Origin: Eledone cirrhosa
Taxonomy: Eukaryota
Direction of reading: 5' to 3'
NCBI GenBank assembly: GCA_964016885.1
Contig: OZ024740.1
Coordinates: 113,832,001-113,896,000, forward strand
Length of the DNA: 64,000 bases
Positions within the stretch are counted from its first letter, which is position 1. The number at the start of each line of letters is the position of its first letter. Under the pieces are notes generated by a model, which saw only the letters and a program-made list of their open reading frames with translations, was not told the origin of the DNA and did no database searches. Made by a program: the position numbers and the translations under genes. Below are positions 23,393-60,878 of the stretch, piece after piece.

Positions 23393-26046
23393 TTTTCTTT
23401 ATTAACCACAAGGGTTTACATAAAGTAGACATTAAGGACAGTACAGGACAATACAGGACGGTACAAATGGGCATTTCTGCGTGTAAAAAACAGAGGAGGA
23501 AATAAAATAACAAAGAAAAATTCCCCAATGGGGGGAGACTTCCGACGGACATTTGTGGAGAAAGCCCATTAAAAGACCACAGTGACCCTGACCACCAGGG
23601 CAAGTGCCCTCACCCAGTTTTCCACCCTTAATTTACAGACACATATTCATTCGGGCCATACTTGCTTCTCTCACCCATCTTTCAACAAAATGCTGGGAAG
23701 AGAGCATTTTCCTCTCTACCCTGATTTTCCTTTTCAAATGAAATTTGAAAAAGTTAATCAGGGCATCACCGAAGAGGTAAGTGCTCGTCTTCAGCCCTTT
23801 CAAACGTGTCCACCATACTATCTCTTTCGCCATGGCCACCAGACAGATAAAAACTGCCTGCCCTTCCCGGCTAAAGGAAGGGGGCGGGGCAATCCTCACG
23901 ATGGACTCAGCTGATAGCTGGATCCGTCCTACACGTGACAGCAGGTGTTCGACATAAACCCACAAGTCAGCAATGCTCGGACACTGGACGAGTGTGTGCA
24001 AGACGGTTTCGTCGCCCTGTGCGCATCTCGGACATGCCCGGCTGACGGCACCTCCATGCCTGTAGAGTTTATCCCGAATTGAGATTCTGTACGATTTCTG
24101 AGTGATGCGAGTGATTTGTATGTGTGGAGGGGGTGTGAACTTTTGGGTTGTTGTGTAGTCTTTTTCTGTGATGCTGGTCTTGTGTTGGATGTAGTGTAAT
24201 AATTGCTTGTTGTTCAAATTTAATGCTGTGTAGTGTGTATCGTTTTGGTTGTTTTGTTTTGTTTGCGTTTGTTGTGGGTTAGTTTGTTTCGCATTTTGGT
24301 GACTTTTGTGGTGTAGGTGATGGTGGTGTTGGGGTTAATTTATTTGTTTCCCTCTGTATTTTGTTTTTGGAGGGGGAAGGAAGAGAATTTTTTCTTTTTT
24401 GGTTTCTTTTTTTTTCCTGATACCGTTTCCCACTCCTCATCGTCACAATCTGTCTCCAGTTGTGATAGGCCGGGGAGTGGAAAATCCTCCACAGGCGTTA
24501 GTTTTGGTTGTGGTGTGGTGGATGGTGTAGGCGCTGGTGCTAGTTCTGAAGCGTTGGGTGGTGGTGGTGTTGGTTTTGCTGGTGGTGGTGGTGTTGGTTT
24601 TGCTACTGTTGCTGGGGTTGTTCCTGTTATGGTTGCTTATGTTGTTGCTGCTACAGTTGTTGCTACCATATCTGCTACTGGTGGTGTTGATGGTTGTGTC
24701 AATGGGGTGGGTAGGAGAGGTGGCCTCAACCTTTTAGCCTGAGGGCAGAAAGCCCTTAGGTGGGTTCCTTCACCACAAACGACACACCTAGGCCTTCTGC
24801 CCTCGACAATTACGGTGAGGTGGCTGCCGTCAGTGAGGTCTATTACCTCTGGGATGTCCTCAATGCTTTTTTGGTCCGCTTGGATCAGGAGCTCCATCCC
24901 AGATCCGGACCAGTTCTCCTGCTTTTCTTTTGCTATTGCCATTATCTTTGTGTTGGCTTCGATGCCGGCGAGGACGGCCGTTATTAGCCAGGGAATTTCG
25001 ATGGCCCGTGGAACATGGGTCACCCTGATCTTTACGAGTCTCTGGCCACAATAGCTTGGGACGAGCGTGAAGTCGTCACTTCTTAATGGGGCCATGGAGT
25101 GTTCTCTAGCCTCCTCTGGTGTTTCAAAGAACACGTCCACGGTTCCATACTTTTTCCCTCGTCTGATGTGGGGTTTTCTTGCCCACACATGTCCCAAAGC
25201 ATTTTGGATTTGGGACTCGGATGCCCGTTCCACTCGGCGTGATTTTACATTTATTGTTCGATACGACACGGTGCATAGGCGCCGATGCTCCATTTTATTA
25301 GGTGGGGGAGGCTGACCCTGTACCCATCTTTCTTTACCATTTGTTTGGCATTTTCTAAATCCTCCTGAGTTACCGTAAATGCTTCGAACTGTTTTGCTAC
25401 TATGGCAAAACTCAGGGTGCTTTTTTTATGTCATTGTTGTTGTTGTTGCTATCGTTATTTTTGTTATTACTAATTTTAGTTTCAGTTGTGGTGGTGGTGA
25501 CGTCAGTGGTTTTCGGTGTGGAAGTGGAAGAGTCCATTTTGGTTGAAATTATTTCGACATCACGAGTTGATTTATTTTTTCCTTTTGTTTCTGTTATCGC
25601 GGTGGTGGTGGGGGTGGTGGTTGTCACGGTGGTGGTGGTGGTGGCGGCTTTAACACCTGCAATCATTGGTAATGGCGGGAAATGAATGTCTGCCTGAGAC
25701 AAATTTAAAATATTGCTACTGCTTACATTTTTTTTAGTGTTGGCAAACGGAGTAACATTTACAATGGTGGTGTCGGTGTGAGGTGTTAATTTGTGAGGAA
25801 GGCTTTCAGCTGCTTGGTGCAGAGGTGAATTAGCCATTTTTTTTCAAAGAAATTTTTTGATAATCATAAAAGTTTAAATTTTGGGCACAAGGCCCCAATC
25901 TTTTTGGGTGTCCTTTTCGGAAAACAATGTATGTGCGCTTATATATAGTTAACAATAAAAATTTTCCATAAATGGCAATGTTTAACAAACGGAAATAACA
26001 AACCTTTGCGGAGCTCACGATGATACGATTTACTACGTAGGTCGCC
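23392..26046 (-). mobile_element. Tx1/L1-clade element 'C': 5' UTR and ORF1 joined to the extreme 3' end of ORF2; APE and RT missing
   Basis: Bounded by (AAT)n on both sides. ORF1 knuckle is CVVCGEGTHLRAFC. At ~24078 it switches into RDKLYRHGGAVSRACPRC. The 3' UTR closely matches family A and ends in AATAAA plus an (ATT)n tail. Confidence 0.9.
23633..25837 (-). pseudogene. Disrupted ORF1 fused in frame to the ORF2 C-terminal CCHC domain
   Basis: ORF-track pieces 25412-25837, 24637-25293 and 23633-24217 are homologous to family A ORF1 and ORF2. Breaks fall at homopolymers and stops. Confidence 0.8.
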
Positions 26047-29776: not shown

Positions 29777-31690
29777 CTAAGAGAGAGAGAGGGAAGGTTT
29801 ACTTACCTCCCGGGTCTTGTGAAGGTCGGGTGGTTCGACCTCCATGGTTGGTGGGATTTCTTTTGGGAACCTCTTTAAAAGTCTTGATGTGGGTTTCACA
29901 TTCGGGGTTCCCACGTCTTCAGGAAAGCTCTCTCGAATTTCTTTGAAGGAATTGAGTGACATTCGGACCAGAAGCAAATCTTCTGGCACGCAAAATGTGC
30001 TCATTTCAAAAATCTCCCCTCTGTTTGAATGTCCTCGCTTCGCGCTAAGAGGGCCATCAGTTTATCGTTGGCCCTTCTGACAAGCACGACATTTTTAACA
30101 TTTTTTTGGTGTGGTTTTATTTGTTTTCGTCTTGGTGAAGGTGGTGGTGATGGTTTTGGTGGTGTTGTTTCAGGTATGCCTATGTTTGTTGTAGGTGTGG
30201 TGTCTGAAATTTTAGGTATTTGTGTGTTTGTTTGTACTTGTGTTTGTTTAGGTGGTTTGCTTTTCGGGGATTGTGGAGGTTGTGTCGATGTTGCTGTTGG
30301 TGATGATGTTATTGGGGAAGTATTTGCGTTAGTGGTGTCTGTATTTTTTGTTGTGTGTGTTTTTCTGGTTTGTTGGGGCTTTTTTCTTTTAGTTTTCTCT
30401 GTTTTTTGGCACTTTTGGGTTTTCCTTCATCTTCGCTGCTGGAAGACAAAGGGTCTGTGTCTGTGAGTGTCTCTGTGTCTGTGTGTGCGTTTATTGTTTT
30501 GTCTATGTGTATAATTGGGGGGGGGGGGGAGTGGGAGAGCTTTCCTCGTTTTGGTGTTGGTGGCGATCCAGCTGGTTTTGATGTTGGTGTCCGTGTTTTT
30601 GTTGATGTTGTTTTTGGTGGTGGTGGTGGTGGTGGTGCAGCTTTCCGTGCTGACACTGACGTTGGCAACAAAGGAGGTTTGCGACCCCCTGCATGTTTGC
30701 GCTGAGGGCAGAAGTCTTGAAGATGCGTTGCTTCCCCGCAGACGAAGCAGCGTGGCCTTCTTCCGTCAATCATTAGTTGGATTGTTGTCCCGTCCTGCAG
30801 GCGGGCAAAATCCGGGATGTTATTCATATCCTCCGTTTTCATTTGGAGAAGAATCTCCAAATCCATGTCCAGGAGGGTAGTGTCTGTCCCCTCCTCGATT
30901 ACGCATCCCAGCAGCCACCATATGTTCATTCCTGGCTGGGAATGCGTACCTTCACTGTCCTTTTACCCATATAGGATGGATGCATGATAATGCGTTCCGT
31001 TCTGCAGGGGGTCACCGAGTGCTTAATATCGAGGGCCTCGGTTTTGAACAGTACCGAGATGGTACCGAACTGTTTGCCTCTTGCTTTGTACTCTATGTTA
31101 CTTCCGATGTACTCCAAAGCAGCCGCTACCTCTGCTTGGCTCGCAAGTTCCACTTTTCGTGTCTGCACCGAAATACATCGAAAGAACACCGTCCTCCTTT
31201 GCATGGCCGCTATTGCCTCGTCCGGGATGGTCAGGTTTGCCCAGGACTTCTCCCGTTTAATTAGCCTCCACGCTTTGGCCCACTGTTAGTCTTTATCGCT
31301 AATATCAATATCAATATTCAATAAGCGCTTTGTTTTTACTGTTGCTGCAGCAAATGTGGTGTTTCTGATGCTCTTATTGTTGTTGTTGTCATTCTTGCTA
31401 TTGTTATTGGTGTTGCCACCGCCATCCTTGTTTACATTGAAGCTGTCGGTGTTATTGTCGTTATTGCTCTGAGTTGTTGTTGTGGTGGTGGTGGTGGTGA
31501 TGTCGTTTTCAGAAGATACTGCTGCTATCGCAGAAGGTTGTGATGGTAGCTTTTGAGTTTTGCCTTCACATTCAGTAGAGTGGATGACAGGCATGACTGT
31601 AGCCATCGTAGTCGTGGTGAAATCTACAGTGGCTGCCTTTAAACTTTTGACATGAACGTTGTTTACCGTTTCAAGGTCGAAAATTTCCAT
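29777..31690 (-). pseudogene. ORF1 (gag-like, zinc knuckle), frameshifted
   Basis: Thr/Asn-rich N-terminus, PSYMGKRTVKVRI, the knuckle CFVCGEATHLQDFC, and a Pro-rich linker. Confidence 0.85.
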
Positions 31691-32149
31691 AATTTTCTTT
31701 TGGTGGGGAAGTGATTTTTTTCGATGTTTTTAAAAATAAATCTGAATATTCGGGCTTAAAGCCCGAATATTGAGAGGTATCCCTCTCTTTAAATCAAGAT
31801 GTGTACCTTAAGTTTCGTTAACGACAAGAAAATACAAAAAAATGACACTTTAAAACAGCTTAACGTTACGAACCTTTCCCCCCGCAGATTTGTAATAATA
31901 ATAATAATAATATTAATAATAAAAATAATAGTTGGTATAATTGAAGTTGCAGTCGCGATTATCAGTTTCGAAATCGATTTTCTGAGGCTGGCATGAAGCA
32001 CCCAATGAGACGATATTAATAAATCGATAAATTTTTGCGCAGCGTAATAAAAATAATTTAGATATGTGACACAGTGCAGATTTCGACCGGAGGCGAGCTG
32101 CCATCTTAATACTACAAGTACGAAAATACAAACAGGTTAAACACGAAGC

Positions 32150-33794: not shown

Positions 33795-33846
<52 letters not shown>

Positions 33847-34006
33847 GGGAAGAAGACGCACGAGGTGACGGAGGTCATGAAATCGCTCCCGTAAGTTTTG
33901 AATTTTTAACATATTTAAATCATTTGTGAAATAACAACTCTTAGTACAAATGCTACGTAAAGCACCCGGCTTGAGCCCCAAAAAAATTCGGACCCAAAAT
34001 ATATAA

Positions 34007-34652
34007 GGCTCAAATATTCAAATATTCAACTTTGTATTGTACACTGTATATCCAAAAAAAAAATGGCTATAAATGGAAGAAGAAGACCCCCCCCCCCTCC
34101 TCTCCTCTGGCTACACTATATAGGACAGCTAAACTCACCAACACCAGAAACTAGATACACCACCCACCCCATCATCTGTGTACACTAAACACAACAGCAT
34201 TTTCACCTTCACCGCCACCGCTCACTACGGCCATCATTACCACCACTATCCCATCACCGCCGCCACCACCCCTTGACTCCTTCACTGCTGCTGCCACCGC
34301 TACAGCACCACCACTACAGTAATACGGCTCAAATATTCAAATATTCAACTTTGTATTGTACACTGTATATCCCCCCAAAAAAAAATAAAATGGCTATAAA
34401 TGGAAGAAGAAGAACCCCCCCCCCTCCTCTCCTCTGGCTACACTATATAGGCCAGCGAAACTCACCAACACCAGAAACTAGATACACCACCCACCCCATC
34501 ATCTGTGTACACTAAACACAACAGCATTTTCACCTTCACCGCCACCGCTCACTACGGCCATCATTACCAACACTATCCCATCACCGCCGCCACCCCCCCC
34601 TGACTCCTTCACTGCTGCTGCCACCGCTACAGCACCATCACTACAGTAATAC
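34007..34652 (+). repeat. Tandem duplication of a ~320-bp unit in the A1 leader
   Basis: 34007-34325 and 34326-34652 both run GGCTCAAATATTCAAATATTC...CTACAGTAATAC. Confidence 0.92.
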
Positions 34653-35223
34653 GGTCGCATCACCGCCACCACTGCCTCGGTATCGACATCACCACCACCA
34701 CTGTCTCAGTATCGCCAACGCCGCCAGTCTCTGCTGGCTACCACTTCCACATTATAGAATTCCTACTACTAACAAAGAGGAAGGCATCAAAATATATAGA
34801 TAGACTCAAAAGAAAAAAGAAAAAACAAACAACAAAAGCAGCACAGCAACAACAGTAAAAAACGAGAAAAACAGAGAAAAACAAAAACAAAAAAAGAAAC
34901 CCCAAAAACGTAAAGAAAATAAGAATGAAGAGAGAAGCAGGCGGACGGACAGAGAAGAGGGGGGAAAAAGTAAAACTTAAAAAACAAAAACTAAGTCAGA
35001 CATTCGAATACTACATTACAATGAAACTTATGCTTATTCATTTTTGGGGCCCTTTCTGCCCGTGTGTTTGTTTGTTTATGTGTGTCCGTATACAGCGTGG
35101 TGATAATGCCACACAAGGGCCAAGTGGGATGGCGGATCCACAGATGGCTATGTAAACATACATTCGCCAATCCTCGATAAGAGTGTTTAAATATCGAACA
35201 TAAACAGTTCGAATAACGGTGAA

Positions 35224-38200
35224 ATGGAGACTAGAACGTCATGTGACAGACTCTCACCCAACAGGTGCCCCCTGGCTCAGCAGCAGGAACCTGACTGTCA
35301 ACCAAATACTGCTGATGTTGGAGGAAGAAGAAGAAGGAAAGGGGCCAGAACCAACTGGACGAAAGAATTGAATAGAACTGTTATGCAATGCTACCTGAAA
35401 AGTAACCCCAATGAGAGGGGCTACAGGAGACGGATGCATAACATCTGGAACGAGATTGGTTTATTTAAATTAGATGAACAAAAATTGGCCGGGCAGGCTC
35501 GGGTAATAAGAACAAATGGGTGGATAAGCGAGCTGGAACTGGAGGAACTGAGCAGAGAGAATGGCTTGGAGATGGCGGGTGTAGTATGCCAGACAAGCGA
35601 GCCGGCGGGAAAAGAAGGTGAGGAGGTCCTGAGAACGGAGGAACCACCCGAAGCAGACAATGATCTGAATACTGAGATAAATAATACCTGGAACAGAGAT
35701 ACGGCCACTGAGGAGATGAATGCTGACGGGCTAGGACAAGATTCGGTTGACATCCTAAATTTAGTGGTAGATGAGTTGAACAATGATAGTGGGAGACCTA
35801 TGAACCTAAGATTTGTAGACAGGAAAAAGTTAAAAGAAACAACAGCTAAGGTAAACAAAGTCATCCCATACCTTGAGGCGAGGAGTCTTCACCAGTGCAA
35901 CAATATCCTGAAAGCAACAGCAAATACGGTGAGGAAACTACTTGGTATAAAAGCGAGAGGAAACAACAGACAAGAAAGAGCAGAGCCGTGGTGGAAGAAG
36001 CGACTGAGTGGGCAAATCGGGGAAATGAGAAATGACATAGGAAAGCTTGAGTCACTACTGAATGGGACACTAAAAAACATAGGCACTAAAAATAGACTGG
36101 AAATAAAATACAAAACTAGGAGTAAAAAGCTAAATATTATCATAGAGGAATTGAAGCAACGCATTGTAGCAAAGAGTGCAAAAATCAGGCGATACGAGAA
36201 CAGAGTCAGTCAGTATAAACAGAACCGCATGTTCGACAACAACCAGAAGATGCTGTTTGGACAGCTTGAGGGCAAAGAAAGAGGCAACGACTTGATCCCT
36301 GGGGCGGAACAAGCTAAAACATTCTGGAGAGGAATATGGGAGCAGGATGTTAGACACAATGCCCAGGCAGGGTGGATTGAGACAGTACAGAGGGAGATCG
36401 GTGAGCAGGCACAGCAACAGACTGATTTGAGTATCACAGTTGAAACTCTTAAGGGGCAAGCCAAAAGACTAACCAACTGGAAATCACCAGGCCCAGATGG
36501 TGTGCAGGGGTATTGGATTAAACATTTAACATCCCTCCACCCGAAGCTGACGGCCATGTTCAATGACTGCTTGGTGTCGGGTGAGGTGCCAGAGTGGTTG
36601 ACAAAAGGTACCACAGTTCTGATAATGAAAGACCGAATCAAGGGTAATGATGTTACCAACTATAGACCTATCACATGTCTGCCCGTAATGTGGAAACTGT
36701 TGACGAGCATTGTGTCTGAGGAAATCTACCATCACCTCCACACAAACAACTTGTTGCCGGACGAACAGAAAGGATGCCGAAAGAAGTCACGTGGTACAAA
36801 GGACCAGTTGCTTATTGATAAGATGGTAATGGGGAATTGCAGGAGGAGACACACTGATCTTGCCATGGGATGGATAGACTACAGAAAGGCATTTGACATG
36901 GTGCCTCATTCCTGGATCACCAAAAGCCTGGAGATCTTCAGGGTGGCAGATAACATCAGACAGTTGCTGGGCAGGAGTATGGGGTCCTGGGAGACAGAGT
37001 TGACATCAACTGGAGTATCCTTGGGAAGCGTGAAGATCAAGAGAGGTATCTTCCAGGGAGATAGCCTGTCCCCTCTGTTGTTTGTCCTTGCCCTGATGCC
37101 CTTGACCATTATGCTGCGAAAAGTGAGAGCAGGATACAAGTTGGGAAGGGGAGAGCTTACCATCAATCACCTCCTCTTCATGGACGATCTTAAGCTCTTC
37201 GGGAAAAGTTAGAAGGAGTTGGATGTGCTTGTTGACACTGTCCGTATTTTCAGCAGTGATATATGTATGCAGTTTGGTATTGGTAAATGTGGAGTCATTG
37301 TGATGAGGAGGGGTAGGTTGAGCAGAAGTAACGGGATCCAGATACCAACAGGTGAGATGATAAAGGAAATTGACTCTGAGGAAGGATACAAGTATTTGGG
37401 CGTTCTGGAGGCTGATGGCATAAAGAACAAAAAAATGAAGGAATTGTTAAGAACTGAATACATTCGGAGAGTAAGGAGCGTATTGAAGTCACATCTGAAC
37501 AGCAGAAATGCTATAAGCGCAGTAAATCCCGAGCTGTGTCTATTATTAGGTACAGTGCGGGAATTCTGAGATGGAATGTTGCTGAACAAAAAGAAATGGA
37601 TAGGAAGACTAGGAAGCTATTGACTATCTACAACATGTTCCACAAGAGGAGTGATGTCGATAGACTCTACCTAAGGAGATCTGAGGCTGGAAGAGGTCTT
37701 ATCAGCATAGAGGACTGTGTTCAGATGGAGAAAAACAACCTATACAAATACGTGACCTATAGTAAGGAGCCAATGCTCAGAGCTGTACTGAAGGAGGGGA
37801 CAGTGGGCCAGGGGATACCCAAGTAGGAAATAACATCAAGGAGGAAGAGCAGCCTTAAGGGAAAATCCCTTCATAGTACCTTCTTTGAGAAAACTGAATT
37901 TAGAGATCCACAGACATGGAACTGGTTGAGAAGAGGAGACCTCAAAAAGGCTACAGAAGGAATGCTAATGGCTGCGCAGGAGCAGGCCCTCAAAACGAAG
38001 TGGTTGAAGCACCATATCTACAAGGAGGAGGCTAGCCCACTGTGCAGGATCTGTGGAGAGAGAGAGGAGACTGTGGCTCACATTGTGTCCGAGTGTAAAC
38101 ACCTAGCCCAGACCCACTATAAGGGCTGGAGACACGATGTGATGGGCAGGGTGATCCACTGGCACCTGTGCAAAGTAAACAATCTACCACATTCTGAGAA

Positions 38201-38615
38201 ATGGTATGAGCATAGGCCAGAGGCGGTGATGGAGAACAGTCAGGTGAAGGTGCTGTGGGATTTTAGGATACAGACGGACAAAAAACTGGAACACAATAGA
38301 CCTGACCTGGTGGTTGTGGACAAAGAAAAAAGATCGTGCCTGATTGTGGATGTGGCCTGCCCGTTCGACACGAGAGTGCAAGAGAAGGAGAGGGAGAAAA
38401 TTAACCGATACCAGGACCTAAAGTGGGAGGTGAAAAGGATTTGGAACTGCCATGAAGTCAAAGTGATCCCGATTGTCATAGGCGCACTGGGGACTATCTC
38501 CAAAGGTTTCCAGGGATGGTTAAAGAAAATCGGCCCCTTCACGCTTTTTGGAACGCTTCAAAAGGCATGCTTGCTTGGAACGGCAAGAACCCTCCGATAC
38601 GTCCTGAATATCTGA
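35224..38615 (+). pseudogene. RT-RLE polyprotein with three lesions
   Basis: Compared with copy A2: GAG>TAG at 37210-37212, a 1-nt deletion at ~37526, and a stop at 37824-37826. Confidence 0.92.
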
Positions 38616-38688: not shown

Positions 38689-38742
<54 letters not shown>

Positions 38743-39002
38743 TTTCTTTATTAACCACAAGGGTTTACATAAAGTAGACATTAAGGACAGTGCAGGACAA
38801 TGCAGGACGGTACAAATGGGCATTTCTGCGTGTAAAAAACAAAAGCAGAGGATGTAACAAAAATAACAATGAAAATAACAATGAAAAATTCCCCAATAGG
38901 GGGGGACACTTCGGAGGGACATTTGTGGAGAAAGCCCAGTAAAAAGCCACAATGACCCTGACCACCAAGGCAAGTGCCCTCTCCCAGTTTTCCACCTTTA
39001 GT

Positions 39003-42000
39003 TTACAGATATATACTCAGAGTCGGCCCATTCACTCGGGCCATTCTTGCTTCTCTCACCCATCTTTCAACAAAATGCTGGGAAGAGAGCACTTCCCTCT
39101 CTACTCTGATTTTCCTTTTCAAATGAAATTTGAAAAAGTCAATCAGAGCATCACCGAAGAGGTAAGTGCTCGTCTTCAGCCCTTTCAAACGTGTCCACCA
39201 TACTATCTCTTTCGCCATGGCCACCAGACAGATAAAAACTGCCTGCCCTTCCCGGCTAAAGGAGGAGGGCGGGGCAATCCTCACGATGGCCTCAGATGAT
39301 AGCTGGATCCGTCCTAAACGCGACAGAAGGTGTTCGACATAAACCCACAAGTCAGCAATTTTCGGACACTGGACGAGTGCGTGCAGGACGGTTTCGTCGC
39401 CCTGCGCGCATCTCGGACATGCCCGACTGACGGCACTTCCATGCCTGTAGAGTTTATCCCGAACTGGCAAGGCTCCTCGGTAGCACTGCCAGGCCAGAGA
39501 TTTCTGGAAGTTGTCCATAGGCCCTGGCCCGAAAGTTCTTCCGAAGAGATTGGCTAGTTGATTTTCGTCGACGCCTAGAGTTTCCCCAAGTACGTCGTCG
39601 CTCTTCCCCTCCACTAATCCTCTATAGAACGCCGAGGTGGAGTTTCCACCGATCACATTGCCCGATTGGTCGAGGGCTATGAGCGCCTGAAGACATTCCA
39701 GTCTCCAGGCGCTCCCTCTCGGTCTTCGCTTGACCCAGGACTGCAGCTCCGTCAAGGAAACGAGCTGGGGAAAAACGCGTCTAGTAAACGGCGACCACAC
39801 CTGATCACCGTCGAGGAAGAGGTGGAGATGTCGTAGCCTGAGCGCGTGCCTGCGCATCATCAGCCACGGCATGCCCAGCCCTCCACGTAGCGGGTGTTGA
39901 CAACAGATGGACCGCCTGACCATCGGAGCGCGTCCCTTCCACAAAAAGCGAAAGAGCAAACGCTCCAGCGCAGTCAGGTGAGGCTTAGGACAAGGTACGA
40001 CGGTCAGGCGGTAGCAGATGACGGACGCGATGTACGCGTTAGCCACCTCCGCTCGACCTTTCAGGGATAGCTTCCTCTCCACCCATTTCTGGGTGAAAGA
40101 AGCCACCCTGCTCGTCACCTCGTCCCAGTTTTTGTCCGTCTGGAGGTCCGGACCGAACCAGACCCCTAGCAATTTAACCGGTCCGTCCGTCCAGCGTCCG
40201 ACGACGCTGTTGGACGGCATGGACCTGCCTCTCCAGGTGCCGAGCTGCAGGCCCACTGACTTTTCCTGGTTGATCATTGCTCCTGTCACCGCTTCGTATT
40301 CTCTTAGTGTAGTGCCGATCGCCTCGATGTGTTTGGCGTTCGACACCACTACGGTGACATCGTCCGCATATGCTGACACGGATCTTCCGCATCCTAGTTC
40401 GCGCGGGACTCCCCTCAACGTCTCCAGTTTGTGCAGTAATGGCTCGAGAGTCAATACGTACAAGAGGGACGAGAGGGGACATCCTTGGCGGACCGAGCGC
40501 ATGATGTTGAACGGTTCCGACAGGTGACCGTTCACTCTCACCACAGAGCAGATGTCGCTGTGCATGGCAGCGATCCAGCCTCTGAAGACGGGCCCAAAGC
40601 CAGCCGCCCTCAGGACTGCCGCTAGGTAACGATGGTCGACCCTATCGAAAGCTTTCGACTGATCTAAATTGATCAAGGACCCACCCGTGCCAGGTTCCCT
40701 AGCTACCCTCTCTACGATGTATCGCATGAGGTGGAGGTTGTCGTGGATGGATCTGTCGGGAATGGCGCATGTCTGCGCCTCTCCCACCAGACCACCAACG
40801 ACAAGCGCCAACCTCTTTGCTAGCACCTTGGCCAAAATCTTAAACTCTGTGTTTAGCAGAGTTATGGGCCGGAAATTGTCTATGTTATCCCCCTTGTTCG
40901 GATCCTTTCTCAGCAGTGCCACCGCTCCTCGGCTCACAGAACTGGGAATTCTCCCGTTCTGTTGCCAGTTGCAGTAGACGTCCGCCAAGAGGCCTCCGAA
41001 CAAGTCTGGCATCTGTACGTAAAGTTCATAGGGCAGACCATCCAAACCAGGCGATTTACCCCTTGTGCAGCCAGTCATTGCCTCCCGTACTTCAGCGGCT
41101 GTTATCGGCTTTTCGCAACACCTCGCCTCAGTGGCCGAGAGCCGCGGCAGCCCGTCGAGGTAGACACTAAAGTCCATCCCTCTACCCGGCCCCCCGCTGC
41201 CCCCGAACAGCTGAGCGAAGTGTCGCTGAAAAGCTTCACACATTTGCCCGGGATCGAGTAGCATGCGCCCGTCGTGGTCCACCAAAGACCGGATCGTGGC
41301 TTTGTTGCCACGACGCGCCTCCGCCACTCGGGCCCATTGAACGGCTTTCGTCCCCTCGTGTGTGAGAGCACGCACCCTAGCTCTGACAACGCAGCCTTCG
41401 TGCTTTGCATTGAAGAATTGGTCAAGGGCCAATTTCGCCGCAAGCACGTCGGTCGCAATGCCTTTGCTAAGCGCCTCGTCTAATTTTCTAACTAGTTCTC
41501 CCTCTGCTCTATTTTTCTCTATTGCTAAAGCCTTACTAAACCTAATCGATTCTATTCTAATCGCTCTTTTCAGAGCAAACCACCACTTGTTGTTGACGAT
41601 GGCCCCCGTCAACGCCCGCTTAACTAGTTTGCTAATCCGGTCTCTGTAGGCCTTGCGCGCTGGTAAGGACGCGTTTAGCTTCCAGTAGCCGGGTCCTCGT
41701 CTATGAAGCCTATCTAAGTCAAGCACACAGGTCACGAATTTGTGGTCCGTGTAGCTGACTATCTTGAATTGTGGACAGCCTATGCTAGACCTATCTATTT
41801 CCCTACAAAATACTCTATCTAGATATGATCTGGATGACCCTATGCGGTTTGTCCAAGTCCACATTGGCACATTCGGGAAATCCAATCGGTACCTGTCAGA
41901 CAGTTCAAAACGCCTGAGCAGGTTGGTGAGGCTCTTGCACCCTCCACCCCTATCCGCTAATCCCACACAGTCCCAGCGTGCATCTAAGATCCCGTTCCAG

Positions 42001-42422
42001 TCGCCCACTAACACTAAAGAGCGGGACGTTCCAAGAAAGGTCTCCAGACGCCGGAAGAAATCAGGCCGCCCTGCTCCTGTCGGGGCATAGACGGCCACTA
42101 GCCTGAAAGCTTGCCCGTCTCCGCTGGTCACGTCCAGCACCACCAGCTTACCCTCTGGGTCCAGGAAGATGGCCCGTATGGCGAGATCCAAACCTCTCCG
42201 AAAAAGTACAGCAACTCCTCCACCGGATCCAGGACGGCTGGGAGATGCGTACACATCGTAGCCGCCGAAGATCGGTGCGAAGGCCCGTGCTTCGGAGATT
42301 CTGGTCTCGCTGATGGCCACTACATCTATGTTTAGTGACCTGAGGTCGTTGAGCAGGTGACCCTGCTTCCATGACGACCCCAAGCCACGCGCATTTATGC
42401 TGCCTATTCTGAGTGAGGTCAT
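39003..42422 (-). CDS. ORF2: APE endonuclease, reverse transcriptase, CCHC (1139 aa)
   Basis: GSINARGL, SETR, VYAP, GDWN, LDR, TDH (APE); KSPGLDG, FRPITLLN, DQSKAFD, QGCPLS, YADD (RT); CPRC...H...C. Confidence 0.97.
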   Translation of the reverse strand: MTSLRIGSINARGLGSSWKQGHLLNDLRSLNIDVVAISETRISEARAFAPIFGGYDVYASPSRPGSGGGVAVLFRRGLDLAIRAIFLDPEGKLVVLDVTSGDGQAFRLVAVYAPTGAGRPDFFRRLETFLGTSRSLVLVGDWNGILDARWDCVGLADRGGGCKSLTNLLRRFELSDRYRLDFPNVPMWTWTNRIGSSRSYLDRVFCREIDRSSIGCPQFKIVSYTDHKFVTCVLDLDRLHRRGPGYWKLNASLPARKAYRDRISKLVKRALTGAIVNNKWWFALKRAIRIESIRFSKALAIEKNRAEGELVRKLDEALSKGIATDVLAAKLALDQFFNAKHEGCVVRARVRALTHEGTKAVQWARVAEARRGNKATIRSLVDHDGRMLLDPGQMCEAFQRHFAQLFGGSGGPGRGMDFSVYLDGLPRLSATEARCCEKPITAAEVREAMTGCTRGKSPGLDGLPYELYVQMPDLFGGLLADVYCNWQQNGRIPSSVSRGAVALLRKDPNKGDNIDNFRPITLLNTEFKILAKVLAKRLALVVGGLVGEAQTCAIPDRSIHDNLHLMRYIVERVAREPGTGGSLINLDQSKAFDRVDHRYLAAVLRAAGFGPVFRGWIAAMHSDICSVVRVNGHLSEPFNIMRSVRQGCPLSSLLYVLTLEPLLHKLETLRGVPRELGCGRSVSAYADDVTVVVSNAKHIEAIGTTLREYEAVTGAMINQEKSVGLQLGTWRGRSMPSNSVVGRWTDGPVKLLGVWFGPDLQTDKNWDEVTSRVASFTQKWVERKLSLKGRAEVANAYIASVICYRLTVVPCPKPHLTALERLLFRFLWKGRAPMVRRSICCQHPLRGGLGMPWLMMRRHALRLRHLHLFLDGDQVWSPFTRRVFPQLVSLTELQSWVKRRPRGSAWRLECLQALIALDQSGNVIGGNSTSAFYRGLVEGKSDDVLGETLGVDENQLANLFGRTFGPGPMDNFQKSLAWQCYRGALPVRDKLYRHGSAVSRACPRCAQGDETVLHALVQCPKIADLWVYVEHLLSRLGRIQLSSEAIVRIAPPSSFSREGQAVFICLVAMAKEIVWWTRLKGLKTSTYLFGDALIDFFKFHLKRKIRVEREVLSSQHFVERWVREARMARVNGPTLSIYL

Positions 42423-42457
42423 GTTTAAAATAGAGTGGAAAAGATGGGAAAGACCAC

Positions 42458-44557
42458 TTACCGTATTTTTGGTAGAGGAGGGATGGTTTTTACATCCCTT
42501 TTCACTTGATCGTCTGGTGAAGGGACCGTTGAATCGTCCCTTCGGCTGGTCGTCGGCTCTTCTAAGAGAATGTCTGAATATACTCTTCGATTAATGGTTC
42601 CTCCTAGGTCCCTGAAATCACCAACTGCGTTGGGGAATTTCGTTTTAATGTTTGTGTATTGTTTCTGTGCTATTTTTAGCAGTCTTATGTTAGTTGGCGT
42701 TTTGATTGGTGCTGGTATTATGTAGTCCTGTTGTGAAATGTCTGTGTGTTCAATTATGTAAGTCATTAGTTTCTTGTTGTGTGTGTTTATTGCCGTGCAT
42801 TTGTTTTTCTGGGGGTGGGGTGTGGTTCTGCTATTTTCTTGTCGTTGTTGCTGGGTGTGTGTGTTTTGTTGTTGTGTTTGCGATGTTGGTGCTTGTGGTG
42901 GTGGTGTTGAAGGTGTTGTTGGCGGTGGGGTTGTCGCCGGTGGTGATGGTGGCGCTAGTGTGGGTGGTGATGGTGTTGGTGTTGTTGCTGCTGTGGGTCT
43001 CTTTGCAGTAGACTTTACCCTTTTCTCATTTCTTTCCTCACTTTTCAAAGGCGACGATGCGCTGCTTCTGCGTTTGTGCCTTCTTACGACCTTTTGCCAT
43101 CTCTCTCCCACCTCACACTCCATGTCTGATTCTGTGAGGTCGGGGAGGGGTACCAACTCCACTCTTTCACTTGTTGTTGTTGGTGATGTTTGCACTGGAG
43201 TCTCTGTTGCAGCTGCATTTGGTATTGCTGTTGTTGTTGTTAGTATTTCCACTGCTGCTGCTGTTTTTGATTTCCGTGGAGTGGGTATGGGTGCCACGGG
43301 CCTATCGTTCCTGGTTGCCGCTTGTCCTGTTGCTGGTAGCCGTGGAGCCGGATTCGGAAGGAGGGGGGTTTTCTCCTTTCTCAGGGTCTTCTCGTTGCAG
43401 AAGGCCCTGAGGTGAGTCTTCGATCCACAGCGAAAGCATTTCGGGCGTTTGCCCTCAACACTTATGGGCAGTTGAGTGCCGTTATCGAAGTCTATCACAT
43501 CCGGGATAGCTTCGATGCACTCCTGGTTGGTTTGGATTAGCATCTCAATGGAGGAGCCGACCCAATCTTCTCTTACTTTTTTCTGTACTTGCAGTACAGT
43601 TGTTTTGTCCTCGATTCCGACGAGGACAGACGCGGCCAGCCAAGAAGGGGTCATTCCGGGGGGGACGTGGGTCAGTTTGACCCTCACAATTTTTTGCCCA
43701 CAGTAGGAGGGCACCAACACCATTTCCTCGCTCCTTAGGGTCACTACTGATTGGGCCTTTGCCTCCTGGGGTGTGGCACAAAGTACGTCTACGGTGGCAT
43801 ATTTTTTGCCTCGGGTGATGTGCGTTTTCCGCTGCCACACAGACCCCAAGGCTTTTTGTATTTGGGCCTCTGTGGCTCTTTCCACCCTACGGGATTTTGT
43901 ACTTACTGTACGGTACGTGACCGTACAGTGCTCTTGGGTTTCGAAAAAATTTTTCGCTGCCTTGCAGATTGCTCGGTGTCCGTTCTTTGTCACCATCTTC
44001 TTCGCTTCCTCTAATTCCTCATTTGTTATGAGGATTGTTTCCAAATTTTTCGCAATACCTGCAAATGAGATTGGTTTTTCTCTGCTGTTGTTGTTGTCGT
44101 CAGAGCTGCTGGTACTTTTGTTGTTGCTGCAGGTACTACGACTACTGCCTCCGCCGCTGTTGCTGTGGTTGTTGTTGGTGTTGCTGCTGCTAATGCTGTT
44201 GTTGTTTATGCTGCTGGTGATGCTGTTGCGGCTGCTACTGTTGTTTTCATTGTCACTGTTGCTGTTGTTATTACGGCTGCTACTGCTATTATTCCTGACG
44301 TCAGACGAGTGAACTGGGTTTTCGTATTTCCCGCACACCTGTTTCGTCGCTGTCGTCGTCGTGGTCGTGGAGAAACCTTGCACGCTTTGCACGAGACTTT
44401 TCTTTTCTTTCGTCGCTTGCGAAAGAGAAGGGAGGGAGAGAGACACATTTAAAGAAGGGAGGGAGAGAGACAATCTTCTCTCTGCTGTAGTGATGATTGA
44501 GGAAGAAGAAGACGGAATGAGTGGGAGTGACGTATGAAATTTCTTTTTGGTAGCCAT
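42458..44557 (-). CDS. ORF1: gag-like nucleic-acid-binding protein (699 aa from ATG)
   Basis: First ATG lies in the context AAAAAAAC-ATG-GCT; the ORF track starts 11 codons earlier at TTG. Has a CX2CX4HX4C knuckle (CFRCGSKTHLRAFC) and Ser/Asn- and Pro/Thr-rich tracts. Confidence 0.92.
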   Translation of the reverse strand: MATKKKFHTSLPLIPSSSSSIITTAERRLSLSLPSLNVSLSLPSLSQATKEKKSLVQSVQGFSTTTTTTATKQVCGKYENPVHSSDVRNNSSSSRNNNSNSDNENNSSSRNSITSSINNNSISSSNTNNNHSNSGGGSSRSTCSNNKSTSSSDDNNNSREKPISFAGIAKNLETILITNEELEEAKKMVTKNGHRAICKAAKNFFETQEHCTVTYRTVSTKSRRVERATEAQIQKALGSVWQRKTHITRGKKYATVDVLCATPQEAKAQSVVTLRSEEMVLVPSYCGQKIVRVKLTHVPPGMTPSWLAASVLVGIEDKTTVLQVQKKVREDWVGSSIEMLIQTNQECIEAIPDVIDFDNGTQLPISVEGKRPKCFRCGSKTHLRAFCNEKTLRKEKTPLLPNPAPRLPATGQAATRNDRPVAPIPTPRKSKTAAAVEILTTTTAIPNAAATETPVQTSPTTTSERVELVPLPDLTESDMECEVGERWQKVVRRHKRRSSASSPLKSEERNEKRVKSTAKRPTAATTPTPSPPTLAPPSPPATTPPPTTPSTPPPQAPTSQTQQQNTHTQQQRQENSRTTPHPQKNKCTAINTHNKKLMTYIIEHTDISQQDYIIPAPIKTPTNIRLLKIAQKQYTNIKTKFPNAVGDFRDLGGTINRRVYSDILLEEPTTSRRDDSTVPSPDDQVKRDVKTIPPLPKIR

Positions 44558-45056
44558 GTTTTTTTGTTTAAAATGAAATTTTGGGTACAAAACCCCAATA
44601 ACTGGTTATTTAACCCCGAAGGGCCAAATAACGGACAGAAAGACCCCTCTCACGAGGAGGAGGGTGTCTTTATCAACAATTTGGTTCAAGTTTTAAACAA
44701 TTTACAATTGTTTTAACGGTTAAAAATTACTATACCTTACAGAGCCGAGCCTCCGTCAACCATGGCATTCAATAATAATAATAATAATAATAATGATTTC
44801 TTTATTAACCACAAGGGTTTACATAAAGTAGACATTAAGGACAGTGCAGGACAATGCAGGACGGTACAAATGGGCATTTCTGCGTGTAAAAAAACAAAAA
44901 CAGAGGATGTAACAAAAATAACAATGAAAATAACAATGAAAAATTCCCCAATAGGGGGGAGACTTCGGAGGGACATTTGTGGAGAAAGCCCAGTAAAAAG
45001 CCACAATGACCCTGACCACCAAGGCAAGTGCCCTCTCCCAGTTTTCCACCTTTAGT

Positions 45057-48476: not shown

Positions 48477-48510
48477 GTTTAAATAGAGTGGAAAAGATGG
48501 GAAAGACCAC

Positions 48511-50604: not shown

Positions 50605-50817
50605 GTTTTTTTGTTTAAAATGAAATTTTGGGTACAAAACCCCAATAACTGGTTATTTAACCCCGAAGGGCCAAATAACGGACAGAAAGACCCCTCTCAC
50701 GAGGAGGAGGGTGTCTTTATCAACAATTTGGTTCAAGTTTTGAACAATTTACAATTGTTTTAACGGTTAAAAATTACTATACCTTACAGAGCCGAGCCTC
50801 CGTCAACCATGGCATTC

Positions 50818-50868
<51 letters not shown>

Positions 50869-50872
<4 letters not shown>

Positions 50873-53800
50873 GAAAATAAGAATGAAGAGAGAAGCAGGC
50901 AGACGGACAGAGAAGAGGGGGGGAAAAGTAAAACTTAAAAAACTAAAACTAAGTCAGACATTCGAACACTACATTACAATGAAACTTATGCTTATTCATT
51001 TTTGGGGCCCTTTCTGCCTGTGTGTTTGTTTGTTTATGTGTGTTCGTATACAGCGTGGTGATAATGCCACACAAGGGCCAAGTGGGATGGCGGATCCACA
51101 GATGGCTATGTAAACATACATTCGCCAATCCTCGATAAGAGTGTTTAAATATCGAACATAAACAGTTCGAATAACGGTGAAATGGAGACTAGAACGTCAT
51201 GTGACAGACTCTCACCCAACAGGTGCCCCCTGGCTCAGCAGCAGGAACCTGACTGTCAACCAAATACTGCTGATGTTGGAGGAAGGAGAAGAAGGAAAGG
51301 GGCCAGAACCAACTGGACGAAAGAATTGAATAGAACTGTTATGCAATGCTACCTGAAAAGTAACCCCAAGGAGAGGGGCTACAGGAGACGGATGCATAAC
51401 ATCTGGAACGAGATTGGTTTATTTAAATTAGATGAACAAAAATTGGCCGGGCAGGCTCGGGTAATAAGAACTAATGGGTGGATAAGCGAGCTGGAACTGG
51501 AGGAACTGAGCAGAGAGAATGGCTTGGAGATGGCGGGTGTAGTATGCCAGACAAGCGAGCCGGTGGGAAATGAAGGTGAGGAGGTCCTGAGAACGGAGGA
51601 ACCACCCGAAGCAGACAATGATCTGAGTACTGAGATAAATAATACCTGGAACAGAGATACGGCCACTGAGGAGATGAATGCTGACGGGCTAGGACAAGAT
51701 TCGGTTGACATCCTAAATTTAGTGGTAGATGAATTGAACAATGATAGTGGGAGACCTATGAACCTAAGATTTGTAGACAGGAAAAAGTTAAAAGAAACAA
51801 CAGCTAAGGTAAACAAAGTCATCCCATACCTTGAGGCGAGGAGCCTTCACCAGTACAACAATATCCTCAGAGCAACAGCAAATACGGTGAGGAAACTACT
51901 TGGTATAAAAGCGAGAGGAAACAACAGACAAGAAAGAGCAGAGCCGTGGTGGAAGAAGCGACTGAGTGGGCAAATCGGGGAAATGAGAAATGACATAGGA
52001 AAGCTTGAGTCACTACTGAATGGGACACTAAAAAACATAGGCACTAAAAATAGACTGGAAATAAAATACAAAACTAGGAGTAAAAAGCTAAATATTATCA
52101 TAGAGGAATTGAAGCAACGCATTGTAGCAAAGAGTGCAAAAATCAGGCGATACGAGAACAGAGTCAGTCAGTATAAACAGAACCGCATGTTCGACAACAA
52201 CCAGAAGATGCTGTTTGGACAGCTTGAGGGCAAAGAAAGAGGCAACGACTTGATCCCTGGGGCGGAGCAAACTAAAACATTCTGGAGAGGAATATGGGAG
52301 CAGGATGTTAGACACAATGCCCAGGCAGGGTGGATTGAGACAGTACAGAGGGAGATCGGTGAGCAGGCACAGCAACAGACTGATTTGAGTATCACAGTTG
52401 AAACTCTTAAGGGGCAAGCCAAAAAACTAACCAACTGGAAATCACCAGGCCCAGTTGGTGTGCAGGGGTATTGGATTAAACATCTAACATCCCTCCACCC
52501 GAAGCTGACGGCCATGTTCAATGACTGCTTGGTGTCGGGTGAGGTGCCAGAGTGGTTGACAAAAGGTACCACAGTTCTGATAATGAAAGACCGAATCAAG
52601 GGTAATGATGCTACCAACTATAGACCTATCACATGTCTGCCCGTAATGTGGAAACTGTTGACGAGCATTGTGTCTGAGGAAATCTACCATCACCTCCACA
52701 CAAACAACTTGTTACCGGACGAACAGAAAGGATGCCGAAAGAAGTCACGTGGTACAAAGGACCAGTTGCTTATTGATAAGATGGTAATGGGGAATTGCAG
52801 GAGGAGACACACTGATCTTGCCATGGGATGGATAGACTACAGAAAGGCATTTGACATGGTGCCTCATTCCTGGATCACCAAAAGCCTGGAGATCTTCAGG
52901 GTGGCAGATAACATCAGACAGTTGCTAGGCAGGAGTATGGGGTCCTGGGAGACAGAGTTGACATCAACTGGAGTATCCTTGGGAAGCGTGAAGATCAAGA
53001 GAGGTATCTTCCAGGGAGATAGCCTGTCCCCTCTGTTGTTTGTCCTTGCCCTGATGCCCTTGACCATTATGCTGCGAAAAGTGAGAGCAGGATACAAGTT
53101 GGGAAGGGGAGAGCTTACCATCAATCACCTCCTCTTCATGGACGATCTTAAGCTCTTCGGGAAAAGTGAGAAGGAGTTGGATGTGCTTGTTGACACTGTC
53201 CGTATTTTCAGCAGTGATATATGTATGCAGTTTGGTATTGGTAAATGTGGAGTCATTGTGATGAAGAGGGGTAGGTTGAGCAGAAGTAACGGGATCCAGA
53301 TACCAACAGGTGAGATGATAAAAGAAATTGACTCTGAGGAAGGATACAAGTATTTGGGCGTTCTGGAGGCTGATGGCATAAAGAACAAAAAAATGAAGGA
53401 ATTGTTAAGAACTGAATACATTCGGAGAGTAAGGAGCGTATTGAAATCACATCTGAAGAGCAGAAATGCCATAAGTGCAGTAAATTCCCGAGCTGTGTCT
53501 ATTATTAGGTACAGTGCGGGAATTCTGAGATGGAATGTTGCTGAACAGAAAGAAATGGATAGGAAGACTAGGAAGCTATTGACTATCTACAACATGTTCC
53601 ACAAGAGGAGTGATGTCGATAGACTCTACCTAAGGAGATCTGAGGGTGGAAGAGGTCTTATCAGCATAGAGGACAGTGTTCAGATGGAGAAAAACGACCT
53701 ATACAAATACGTGACCTATAGTAAGGAGCCAATGCTCAGAACTGTACTGAAGGAGGGGACAGTAGGCCAGGGGATGTCCAGGGAGGAAATAACATCAAGG

Positions 53801-54649
53801 AGGAAGAGCAGCCTTAAGGGAAAACCCCTTCATAGTACCTTCTTTGAGAAAACTGAATTTAGAGATCCACAGACATGGAACTGGTTGAGAAGAGGAGACC
53901 TCAAAAAGGCTACAGAAGGAATGCTAATGGCTGCGCAGGAGCAGGCCCTCAAAACGAAGTGGTTGAAGCACCATATCTACAAGGAGGAGGCTAGCCCACT
54001 GTGCAGGATCTGTGGAGAGAGAGAGGAGACTGTGGCTCACATTGTGTCCGAGTGTAAACACCTAGCCCAGACCCACTATAAGGGCTGGAGACACGATGTG
54101 ATGGGCAGGGTGATCCACTGGCAGCTATGCAAAGTAAACAATCTACCACATTCTGAGAAATGGTATGAGCATAGGCCAGAGGCGGTGATGGAGAACAATC
54201 ACGTGAAGGTGCTGTGGGATTTTAGGATACAGACGGACAAAAAACTGGAACACAATAGACCTGACCTGGTGGTTGTGGACAAAGAAAAAAGATCGTGCCT
54301 GATTGTGGATGTGGCCTGCCCGTTCGACACGAGAGTGCAAGAGAAGGAGAGGGAGAAAATTAACCGATACCAGGACCTAAAGTGGGAGGTGAAAAGGATT
54401 TGGAACTGCCATGAAGTCAAAGTGATCCCGATTGTCATAGGCGCACTGGGGACTATCTCCAAAAGTTTCCAGGGATGGCTAAAGAAAATCGGCCCCTTCA
54501 CGCTTTTTGGAACGCTTCAAAAGGCATGCTTGCTTGGAACAGCAAGGACCCTCCGATACGTCCTGAATATCTGAGGCTGCAGGTAGTGGCTTGATATTCA
54601 ATCCAACGGACTTTCCAGTTAACCAACATCAATGACTGAGATTCAAGGA
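50869..54649 (+). mobile_element. R4/Dong-type element A2, truncated within the leader, ORF uninterrupted
   Basis: Begins at the position equivalent to A1 ~34912, with (AAT)n on both sides. Confidence 0.95.
51182..54574 (+). CDS. RT, CCHC and restriction-like (PD-(D/E)xK) endonuclease polyprotein (1130 aa)
   Basis: YRPITCL, WIDYRKAFD, GIFQGDSLSP, FMDD, CRIC...H...C, RHD, RPDLVVVD...IVDVACP...EKINRY. Confidence 0.96.
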   Translation: METRTSCDRLSPNRCPLAQQQEPDCQPNTADVGGRRRRKGARTNWTKELNRTVMQCYLKSNPKERGYRRRMHNIWNEIGLFKLDEQKLAGQARVIRTNGWISELELEELSRENGLEMAGVVCQTSEPVGNEGEEVLRTEEPPEADNDLSTEINNTWNRDTATEEMNADGLGQDSVDILNLVVDELNNDSGRPMNLRFVDRKKLKETTAKVNKVIPYLEARSLHQYNNILRATANTVRKLLGIKARGNNRQERAEPWWKKRLSGQIGEMRNDIGKLESLLNGTLKNIGTKNRLEIKYKTRSKKLNIIIEELKQRIVAKSAKIRRYENRVSQYKQNRMFDNNQKMLFGQLEGKERGNDLIPGAEQTKTFWRGIWEQDVRHNAQAGWIETVQREIGEQAQQQTDLSITVETLKGQAKKLTNWKSPGPVGVQGYWIKHLTSLHPKLTAMFNDCLVSGEVPEWLTKGTTVLIMKDRIKGNDATNYRPITCLPVMWKLLTSIVSEEIYHHLHTNNLLPDEQKGCRKKSRGTKDQLLIDKMVMGNCRRRHTDLAMGWIDYRKAFDMVPHSWITKSLEIFRVADNIRQLLGRSMGSWETELTSTGVSLGSVKIKRGIFQGDSLSPLLFVLALMPLTIMLRKVRAGYKLGRGELTINHLLFMDDLKLFGKSEKELDVLVDTVRIFSSDICMQFGIGKCGVIVMKRGRLSRSNGIQIPTGEMIKEIDSEEGYKYLGVLEADGIKNKKMKELLRTEYIRRVRSVLKSHLKSRNAISAVNSRAVSIIRYSAGILRWNVAEQKEMDRKTRKLLTIYNMFHKRSDVDRLYLRRSEGGRGLISIEDSVQMEKNDLYKYVTYSKEPMLRTVLKEGTVGQGMSREEITSRRKSSLKGKPLHSTFFEKTEFRDPQTWNWLRRGDLKKATEGMLMAAQEQALKTKWLKHHIYKEEASPLCRICGEREETVAHIVSECKHLAQTHYKGWRHDVMGRVIHWQLCKVNNLPHSEKWYEHRPEAVMENNHVKVLWDFRIQTDKKLEHNRPDLVVVDKEKRSCLIVDVACPFDTRVQEKEREKINRYQDLKWEVKRIWNCHEVKVIPIVIGALGTISKSFQGWLKKIGPFTLFGTLQKACLLGTARTLRYVLNI

Positions 54650-54660
54650 ATAACAATAAC

Positions 54661-54770
<110 letters not shown>

Positions 54771-55031
54771 TTTCTTTATTAACCACAAGGGTTTACATAA
54801 AGTAGACATTAAGGACAGTGCAGGACAATGCAGGACGGTACAAATGGGCATTTCTGCGTGTAAAAAAAACAAAAATAGAGGATGTAACAAAAATAACAAT
54901 GAAAATAACAATGAAAAATTCCCCAATAGGGGGGAGACTTCGGAGGGACATTTGTGGAGAAAGCCCAGTAAAAAGCCACAATGACCCTGACCACCAAGGC
55001 AAGTGCCCTCTCCCAGTTTTCCACCTTTAGT

Positions 55032-58451: not shown

Positions 58452-58486
58452 GTTTAAAATAGAGTGGAAAAGATGGGAAAGACCAC

Positions 58487-60825: not shown

Positions 60826-60856
<31 letters not shown>

Positions 60857-60878
60857 AAGAAGAAGAAGAAGAAGAAGA
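60800..60878. repeat. (AAT)n to (GAA)n spacer. Other array spacers: 23344-23391, 26047-26079, 31893-31930, 33268-33320, 33470-33518, 33796-33846, 38690-38740, 44771-44794, 50818-50870, 54649-54768
   Basis: Directly visible. All read AAT on the plus strand. Confidence 0.97.

Follow-up and report, generated by a model that had tools for sequence, protein, structure and literature searches.

A 5' leader shared by Tx1-type and R4/Dong-type retrotransposons of Eledone cirrhosa, and its probable capture as a promoter

Young R4/Dong-type retrotransposons of Eledone cirrhosa begin with a leader of about 220 nucleotides, and profile comparisons indicate that it is homologous to the leader that opens Tx1-type elements inserted in the same microsatellites. 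The copy beginning at position 33847 of the 64,000-nucleotide stretch of DNA analysed here (the window) marks the true 5' end of its family. We consider it probable that Dong elements captured this leader from a Tx1 element and use it as a promoter. In addition, we identified a second, probably later, swap between two R4 lineages, which was not part of an earlier note on this DNA and is new here.

From about 23.3 kb onward the window, which comes from a genome of 3.0 Gb, is an array of non-LTR retrotransposons spaced by (AAT)n runs. The minus-strand elements have two ORFs, the second of which encodes an APE endonuclease, a reverse transcriptase (RT) and a zf-RVT zinc finger (matches to Exo_endo_phos, RVT_1 and zf-RVT). 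In the plus-strand elements a single ORF combines an RT with a CCHC finger and, towards the C terminus, an RPD..D motif. In a domain search this Dong-type ORF matched RVT_1 (E 4.6e-23) and gave no Exo_endo_phos (APE) match; its CCHC and RPD..D stretches are assigned by motif form. We label the plus-strand elements putative R4/Dong-type RLE elements from their domain make-up and (TAA)n target, the proteins in the tree being unnamed or uncharacterised. The minus-strand elements are provisionally called Tx1 from an earlier label, their structure and their targeting of microsatellites. The structure expected of a Tx1/L1-group element is present, namely an open 699-aa ORF1 and an ORF2 with an N-terminal APE domain, RT and zinc finger. 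The features discussed below are as follows.

25835..26046, minus strand: Tx1-X leader, of the same architecture
31688..31893, minus strand: Tx1-C leader, without a recognisable GTAAG box; the hairpin persists and includes a compensatory pair
33796..33846, plus strand: (TAA)17 target microsatellite upstream of Dong-A1
33847..34094, plus strand: Tx1-type leader at the Dong-A1 5' end, through both ATGs (profile match 33882-34094)
33885..33896, plus strand: GCTCCC-GTAAGT box in Dong-A1, common to Tx1-type families; the G of GTAAGT is at +45
33993..34031, plus strand: what is left of the Tx1 hairpin that precedes the ATG, in decayed form; outer pairs present, inner pairs broken
34003..34654, plus strand: 327-bp tandem duplication in the Dong-A 5' UTR, with only short uORFs
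35191..38612, plus strand: Dong-A1 ORF; ATG at 35224, stop at 37212, frame break near 37527
39003..44557, minus strand: Tx1-A1 ORF1 (699 aa from the ATG) and ORF2 (APE endonuclease, RT, zf-RVT)
44555..44770, minus strand: Tx1-A1 leader; GTAAGG at 44740-44735, UUCG-loop hairpin at about 44632-44605, ATG at 44557
51149..54574, plus strand: intact Dong-A ORF, 1141 aa stop to stop, in a 5'-truncated copy that starts near 50871; RT, CCHC at aa 952-969, RPD..D RLE motif at aa 1037-1058
60867..61580, plus strand: Dong-B leader and UTR segment
61581..64000, plus strand: Dong-B body, degenerate, of a deeply separate R4 lineage

The Dong-type leader is linked to Dong bodies at its best-scoring loci. Forty of 1384 candidate Dong-A leader loci were scored, and in the best 30, which include the window copy, the leader runs colinearly into a Dong-A body (30/30) and is preceded by (AAT)n or (AAG)n. 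Among the best 30 of 2273 Dong-B candidates, 27 lead into a Dong-B body and three into a Dong-A-type body, and all 5'-complete Dong copies observed carry the leader. At loci chosen as Dong or Tx1, a Dong protein lies downstream of 47 of the 54 Dong-type leader matches and a Tx1 protein downstream of none, while a Tx1 protein follows 114 of 149 Tx1-type matches. Runs of (AAT)n, at times with (AAG)n, stand upstream of 47 of the 54 Dong-type matches. Dong and Tx1 elements insert into the same (AAT)n/(ATT)n repeats, each on its own strand and opposite to the other, in agreement with the earlier note, which had them sharing a target. That note also proposed looking for the module as a stand-alone element; the top loci of both types (30/30 and 30/30) run into Dong bodies with no unlinked copy found, and a SINE-like small element was rejected on these best-scoring copies, outside of which rare solos are possible.

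At many Dong 5' junctions, (AAG)n runs lie between the (AAT)n target and the leader and extend the element's own GAAGAAG start (for example at 60827-60878 in the window and at L025, L029, L035, L056 and L057), possibly because the RT slips or adds repeats when it reaches the end of its template. The 327-bp UTR unit, each copy of which contains the ATG region, varies from one to three among young Dong-A copies, with one in L019, L021 and L029 and three in L022 and L024. At least six Dong-B-type copies stand in tandem with a spacing of ~4.9 kb (G000:C2:353616446-353641375). Young Tx1-A copies (~99% identical) form head-to-tail runs with a spacing of ~6.05 kb in many arrays, including 38741-50817 and 54769-60799 of the window, where leaders near-identical to that of Tx1-A1 begin at 50817 and 60799.

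The leader motifs quoted in the earlier note and its five ATG positions (44557, 25837, 31690, 34063 and 61085) were all found as given, the ATGs lying 203-218 nucleotides from the 5' ends used here. Compared pairwise under permissive scoring, Tx1-A reaches z=5.2 with Dong-A and z=7.2 with Dong-B, and none of 2000 dinucleotide shuffles attains either score. Because 77/2000 and 8/2000 shuffles, respectively, match the scores under stringent BLAST-like scoring, the two-sequence evidence for homology is modest, being suggestive and not decisive when taken alone. An exact 9-mer, TGACGGAGG, is common to Tx1-A and Dong-A. It is absent from the B-type Dong leader and is therefore not the ancestral signal.

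Most Tx1 leaders were recovered with a motif derived from this finding, Tx1-C being one without that box, and homology was therefore tested with the GTAAG motif cut away, using a profile of Tx1 leaders only over the part that follows it (199 positions). Six B-type Dong leaders score 25-36 bits and align with few gaps over positions 3-193, and three A-type leaders score 8-11 bits. Null distributions were run on two Dong copies; neither shuffles nor 10-nt block shuffles reach the score of the B-type copy L174 (0/500), and 0-1/500 reach that of the A-type copy L180. Reverse complements fall below zero bits. Of 458 genomic tiles, the highest-scoring one attains 8.4 bits, level with the weakest A-type copy (8.2). 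With Tx1-A and F8 left out of the profile, B-type leaders reach 17-27 bits and A-type leaders 7-10 bits. A whole-leader Tx1-only profile run on the window matches Dong-A with an E of 2.9e-5 (33882-34094) and Dong-B with an E of 1.1e-8 (60907-61061); its best match outside any leader in the 64 kb has 1.4 bits. Thus the leader that the earlier note held to be shared by Tx1 and Dong, and for which it called for comparison with shuffled sequence, is borne out by the profile. We regard the homology evidence as strong for B-type leaders. For A-type leaders it is weak when taken alone, but these are 77-78% identical to B-type leaders over 350 nt.

The leader module itself is, from the sequences compared, a feature of many Tx1-type families. 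The pattern (ATT)n..GCTCC(N)GTAAG has 373 matches, counting overlapping starts, versus 1 for a reversed control. An alignment of 34 leaders, from which most F8 copies were omitted along with L203 and L204, whose motif did not parse, includes 19 Tx1-type leader types, 15 of which are linked to Tx1 ORF1/ORF2 matches. The parts of the leader come in a set order: a variable start of 25-45 nt that often contains GACG, the GCTCC-GTAAGT box, a stretch rich in T, a palindrome and, at about +200-220, an A-rich ATG. A pattern for the Tx1-A leader matches 1402 sites, of which the first 100 comprise 94 of Tx1-A type and 6 of Dong-B type, although a DNA search with the Tx1-A leader as query returned nothing. 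Leader and ORF1 affinities are discordant among Tx1 families (for example F2/F14 versus F1), which suggests that leaders may have been swapped among these families also. At L168 and L169 versus L170, and with the window element at 25837, F1-like leaders are seen joined to an ORF1 closer to that of Tx1-A (45-55%) than to F1's own (~30%). Many old Tx1-type copies (L151-L170, L187-L216) consist of the leader and the 3' part with large internal deletions, and are possibly non-autonomous derivatives.

Given homology, transfer from Tx1 to Dong is likely the correct direction. It is favoured because the hairpin and ORF1 are intact in Tx1 and broken in Dong, and because Dong leaders form a clade among Tx1 leaders. 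In 16 of the 19 Tx1 types, 8-11 of the 11 hairpin pairs are kept, with double changes such as TA>CG and GC>CG, and the loop is C-UUCG-G in Tx1-A and F3; three types (F5, F10b and F11) have no hairpin. Dong leaders preserve the outer pairs of this hairpin, with its inner pairs broken. The leader ATG opens the 699-aa ORF1 in Tx1-A. In Dong, both leader ATGs open uORFs of 10-56 aa in 53/53 scorable copies, a further 7 of the 60 loci not being scorable. The first ATG of the Dong-A1 leader is at 34063, and the second, ATGGAAG, matches the Tx1 ORF1 start; over some ten codons it resembles this start as found in types F8, F12 and F6b. The suggestion that the start of ORF1 was captured with the leader therefore holds for these ~10 codons and goes no further. 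Extended ORF1 similarity has z values of 0.5-3.1 for four candidate families and -1.5 to 0.7 for two window Tx1s, which are no better than the low-complexity control (2.0), and longer ORF1 homology between Dong and Tx1 was rejected as unproven.

In the leader tree (unrooted, 262 columns, 28 of 43 rows used) the Dong rows form one clade (100/100) inside a larger Tx1 group and apart from Tx1-A (97/96); the Dong stem branch is 0.44, and sister support is 86/84, a weak assignment. Because Dong leaders group away from Tx1-A, the donor was likely another Tx1 family. Tx1-A, the partner chosen in the earlier note, is thus a homologue of the Dong leader without being its closest relative. No close donor family was found among the 28 rows of this unrooted tree, and a metagenome scan for outgroup 5' ends returned two weak, uninformative loci. 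A second, independent capture in Dong orientation was searched for with the box GCTCCGTAAG only and was rejected, since the single locus found is a Dong variant.

Within Dong, leader history and RT history are discordant. Dong-A and Dong-B are 49% identical in the RT and ~35-40% elsewhere. An older Dong-A subfamily, Dong-AB, is 88% identical to Dong-A in the RT; in the tree, the two fall together with proteins of shrimp and sea urchin and apart from Dong-B (FastTree support 0.998). Across this divide, the first 710 nt of Dong-AB and Dong-B, compared in copies other than that of the window, are 96.5% identical. Noncoding identity at this level cannot date from the RT split, and we therefore infer a recent move of the front end between R4 lineages, in which ~700 nt likely passed between Dong-AB and Dong-B, in either direction. 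Among nine further loci with an A-type body, three carry the B-type leader to the 5' end or to within ~30 nt; the rest comprise two with part of the B-type UTR, three truncated copies and one rearranged young copy. In contigs of run X6 (organism C) the B-type leader and the A-type body occur separately and unbridged, which is a hint only, and a near-identical contig of low depth from run X5 was kept out of the evidence.

The leader is likely the internal Pol II promoter of Dong, a reading based on where it lies, on its being conserved among Tx1 families and on the part that L1 5' UTRs are known to play, as described in parts of PMC5381506. Between Dong-A and Dong-AB, identity is 92% (68/74) over +37-110 and 79% over +111-220, with 88-93% at four-fold sites, and no excess of conservation over four-fold degenerate sites was found in the first 110 nt of the Dong leader. 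The GTAAGT of the Dong-A1 box matches the full consensus of a 5' splice site. Because no spliced integrated copies were found, we read it as a likely transcription signal that would act by factor binding or by U1 recruitment; splice-donor sequences have a role in transcription through recruitment of U1. The search for spliced genomic Dong copies covered the acceptor at 35096, the best candidate in Dong-A, and part of the others, and its junction patterns gave 0, 4 and 5 matches. These 4 and 5 matches are point or short-indel variants except for one odd junction, a nested insertion, and a spliced retrocopy was rejected. Contigs of four runs, whose kind is unrecorded, contain no joint at the GTAAG box and are silent on expression. 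In human L1, mutation of a splice donor in the 5' UTR left RNA at ~18%, an effect ascribed in the relevant part of PMC5860796 to an overlapping RUNX3 site.

Several other features of the Dong UTRs were seen. GGGATGGCGG is present in the UTRs of both Dong-A and Dong-B. In the Dong-B UTR (~61870-61960), just 5' of the ORF, inspection by eye showed a hairpin whose loop AGGACGA could pair with a downstream TCGTCCT, a possible pseudoknot and a candidate for internal translation initiation. A self-cleaving ribozyme in the leader was rejected. Rfam gave no ribozyme match up to E=5 in 23000-64000, folding z-scores are -0.3 to 1.4, and an HDV descriptor of our own, run without a positive control, matched none of three Dong UTRs and gave a single loose hit within the leader of Tx1-A.

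Two alternatives accept much of this evidence and differ in function or source. The same capture might have supplied a GTAAGT donor that splices out a UTR rich in upstream ATGs, or an RNA-processing element. Fourteen ATGs precede the Dong-A ORF, a pyrimidine/TG-rich tract that ends in TACAG and resembles a splice acceptor lies at ~35060-35096, ~130 nt 5' of the Dong-A ATG, and an AG recurs, as judged by eye, ~70-80 nt 3' of the GTAAG box in many Tx1 leaders. However, no spliced genomic copy was found for the part of the possible acceptors covered, and neither the Rfam search nor the folding scores point to a processing element; we think this function unlikely. Translation of the Dong ORF behind its 14 upstream ATGs might proceed by internal initiation, which is a guess. 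Alternatively, Tx1 and Dong could each have taken the leader from a host gene promoter or some other element. In keeping with such a donor, none of the Tx1 leaders stands much nearer to Dong than the families of Tx1 stand to one another, and gain of outside regulatory sequence by L1 is reported in part of 10.1101/2025.02.02.635956. Yet Dong retains parts specific to Tx1, namely the ATGGA..CCCCTCT start of ORF1 and the outer hairpin arms, and the profile matches lie on elements of these two groups, at loci chosen as such. A third-party donor is accordingly improbable in our estimation.

Convergence would have unrelated AT-rich leaders evolve core-promoter and splice-site motifs at like spacing. 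The contexts of GTAAGT and of the A-rich ATG are generic, stringent pairwise scores are weak, and the TGACGGAGG match with Tx1-A occurs in Dong-A only, all of which suit this explanation. It is difficult to reconcile with a motif-free profile that aligns Dong over 3-193 of its 199 positions at 25-36 bits, beats block shuffles and still gives 17-27 bits without Tx1-A and F8; for B-type leaders convergence is largely refuted by these comparisons, and we give it very little credence overall. Nor do we see much prospect for the reverse direction, in which a leader native to R4/Dong spread into Tx1, even though both sampled R4 lineages and all 5'-complete Dong copies observed carry the leader. Dong leaders, at 77-96% identity, are far less diverse than those of Tx1, only Tx1 has the hairpin and the start of ORF1 in intact form, and similar boxes are known from frog L1 5' UTRs, where GACGC and GAGCTCCG lie at ~+30/+40 according to a section of PMC5381506. 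We judge this direction to be hardly credible.

Capture of a Tx1 leader by Dong, with the leader acting as a promoter, is the account that we favour as fairly probable, and the capture likely happened once, from an (ATT)n-targeting Tx1 family. Tx1 and Dong groups would crowd into the same microsatellite arrays, where a Dong copy on the same strand and downstream of a Tx1 5' fragment could be transcribed by read-through from the Tx1 start and reverse-transcribed to the cap. Alternatively, the RT might jump from Dong RNA to a Tx1 5' fragment; template jumping has reportedly been observed for the R2 RT. Either event would leave an RLE element with a promoter of its own, away from any target that is transcribed. 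Its likely transcription signals would be the GACG/GCTCC boxes together with GTAAGT, which appears to go unspliced, and the hairpin and ORF1, needed by Tx1 alone, would then decay in Dong. The ~700-nt front would later have moved between Dong-AB and Dong-B via template switching. At L201:1490-3262, an old Tx1 leader is followed by an inverted 5' fragment of another Tx1, (AAT)n, and finally a young Dong-B, truncated and sharing the strand of the first Tx1 leader, an arrangement that could seed such a capture. More tentatively, and as speculation that we think more likely wrong than right, microsatellite arrays may be hubs where non-LTR clades separate since early eukaryotes trade a portable promoter cassette, and an L1/Tx1 core promoter with an unspliced U1 site may have freed two promoter-less RLE lineages from host read-through and driven their expansion to thousands of copies.

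R2 and RLE elements like it obtain their RNA by release from host transcripts, and we know of no established mode of transcription for microsatellite-targeting Dong/R4 elements. A promoter taken from an L1-group neighbour would be a concrete and testable answer for Dong/R4, and would implicate shared target sites in recombination between clades. The 220-nt leader, of which both clades have young intact copies, could serve directly as a reporter of transcription in this animal. In addition, these families will be mislabelled by repeat libraries whose classification relies on 5' ends.

R2 reportedly carries an HDV-like ribozyme at its 5' end, by which it is cut from a host co-transcript. Like that ribozyme, the Dong leader would be a module at the 5' end of an RLE element that sets where its RNA begins; in contrast to R2, the Dong UTRs yielded no such ribozyme in our searches. 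Known Dong elements resemble the present ones in their (TAA)n target and in a single ORF with RT, CCHC and C-terminal PD..D, as far as the relevant part of PMC3812793 describes them. That review places Dong among APE types, whereas the present elements have CCHC and the RLE motif and no APE match. They also differ in a 5' UTR of 1.0-1.4 kb with a Tx1-type leader that is common to two lineages 49% identical in RT. The Tx1 families Kibi and Koshi, which target (TC)n and (TTC)n, are like the present Tx1 elements two-ORF APE elements inserted in microsatellites (PMC4494074); the (ATT)n target seen here, shared with Dong on the opposite strand, is not among the targets given in the part of that source on which we draw. 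Recently active Dong-R4 and L1-Tx1 families are noted for Octopus vulgaris in a portion of PMC13282606.

The splice donor and SpIREs of human L1 5' UTRs offer a parallel in that a donor near the 5' end is tied to promoter output, in the relevant part of PMC5860796. Unlike the SpIREs, spliced integrated copies were not found in our search, and the full GTAAGT consensus extends across many families. Chimeras of L1 with other RNAs are documented in a part of 10.1101/2025.02.02.635956. No report of leader transfer from Tx1 to R4, that is, across the APE/RLE divide, was found in the literature covered, which did not extend to repeat-database reports; a repeat-library note is possible. Among the closest known systems is replacement of the 5' UTR or promoter in mammalian and lizard L1, as treated in sections of PMC5381506. 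There, as in Dong, ORFs are kept while the 5' regulatory region is swapped, and leader and RT histories disagree. In those sections, replacement occurs within L1 and the donor is usually of unknown origin. In the present case an RLE element with one ORF is the recipient, the likely donor is an APE-clade element whose RT is 27% identical to the recipient's, and the module then moved, probably, between two R4 lineages across a 49%-identity RT gap. The present case would thus be a known kind of promoter capture that newly extends from swaps within L1 to the APE/RLE divide.
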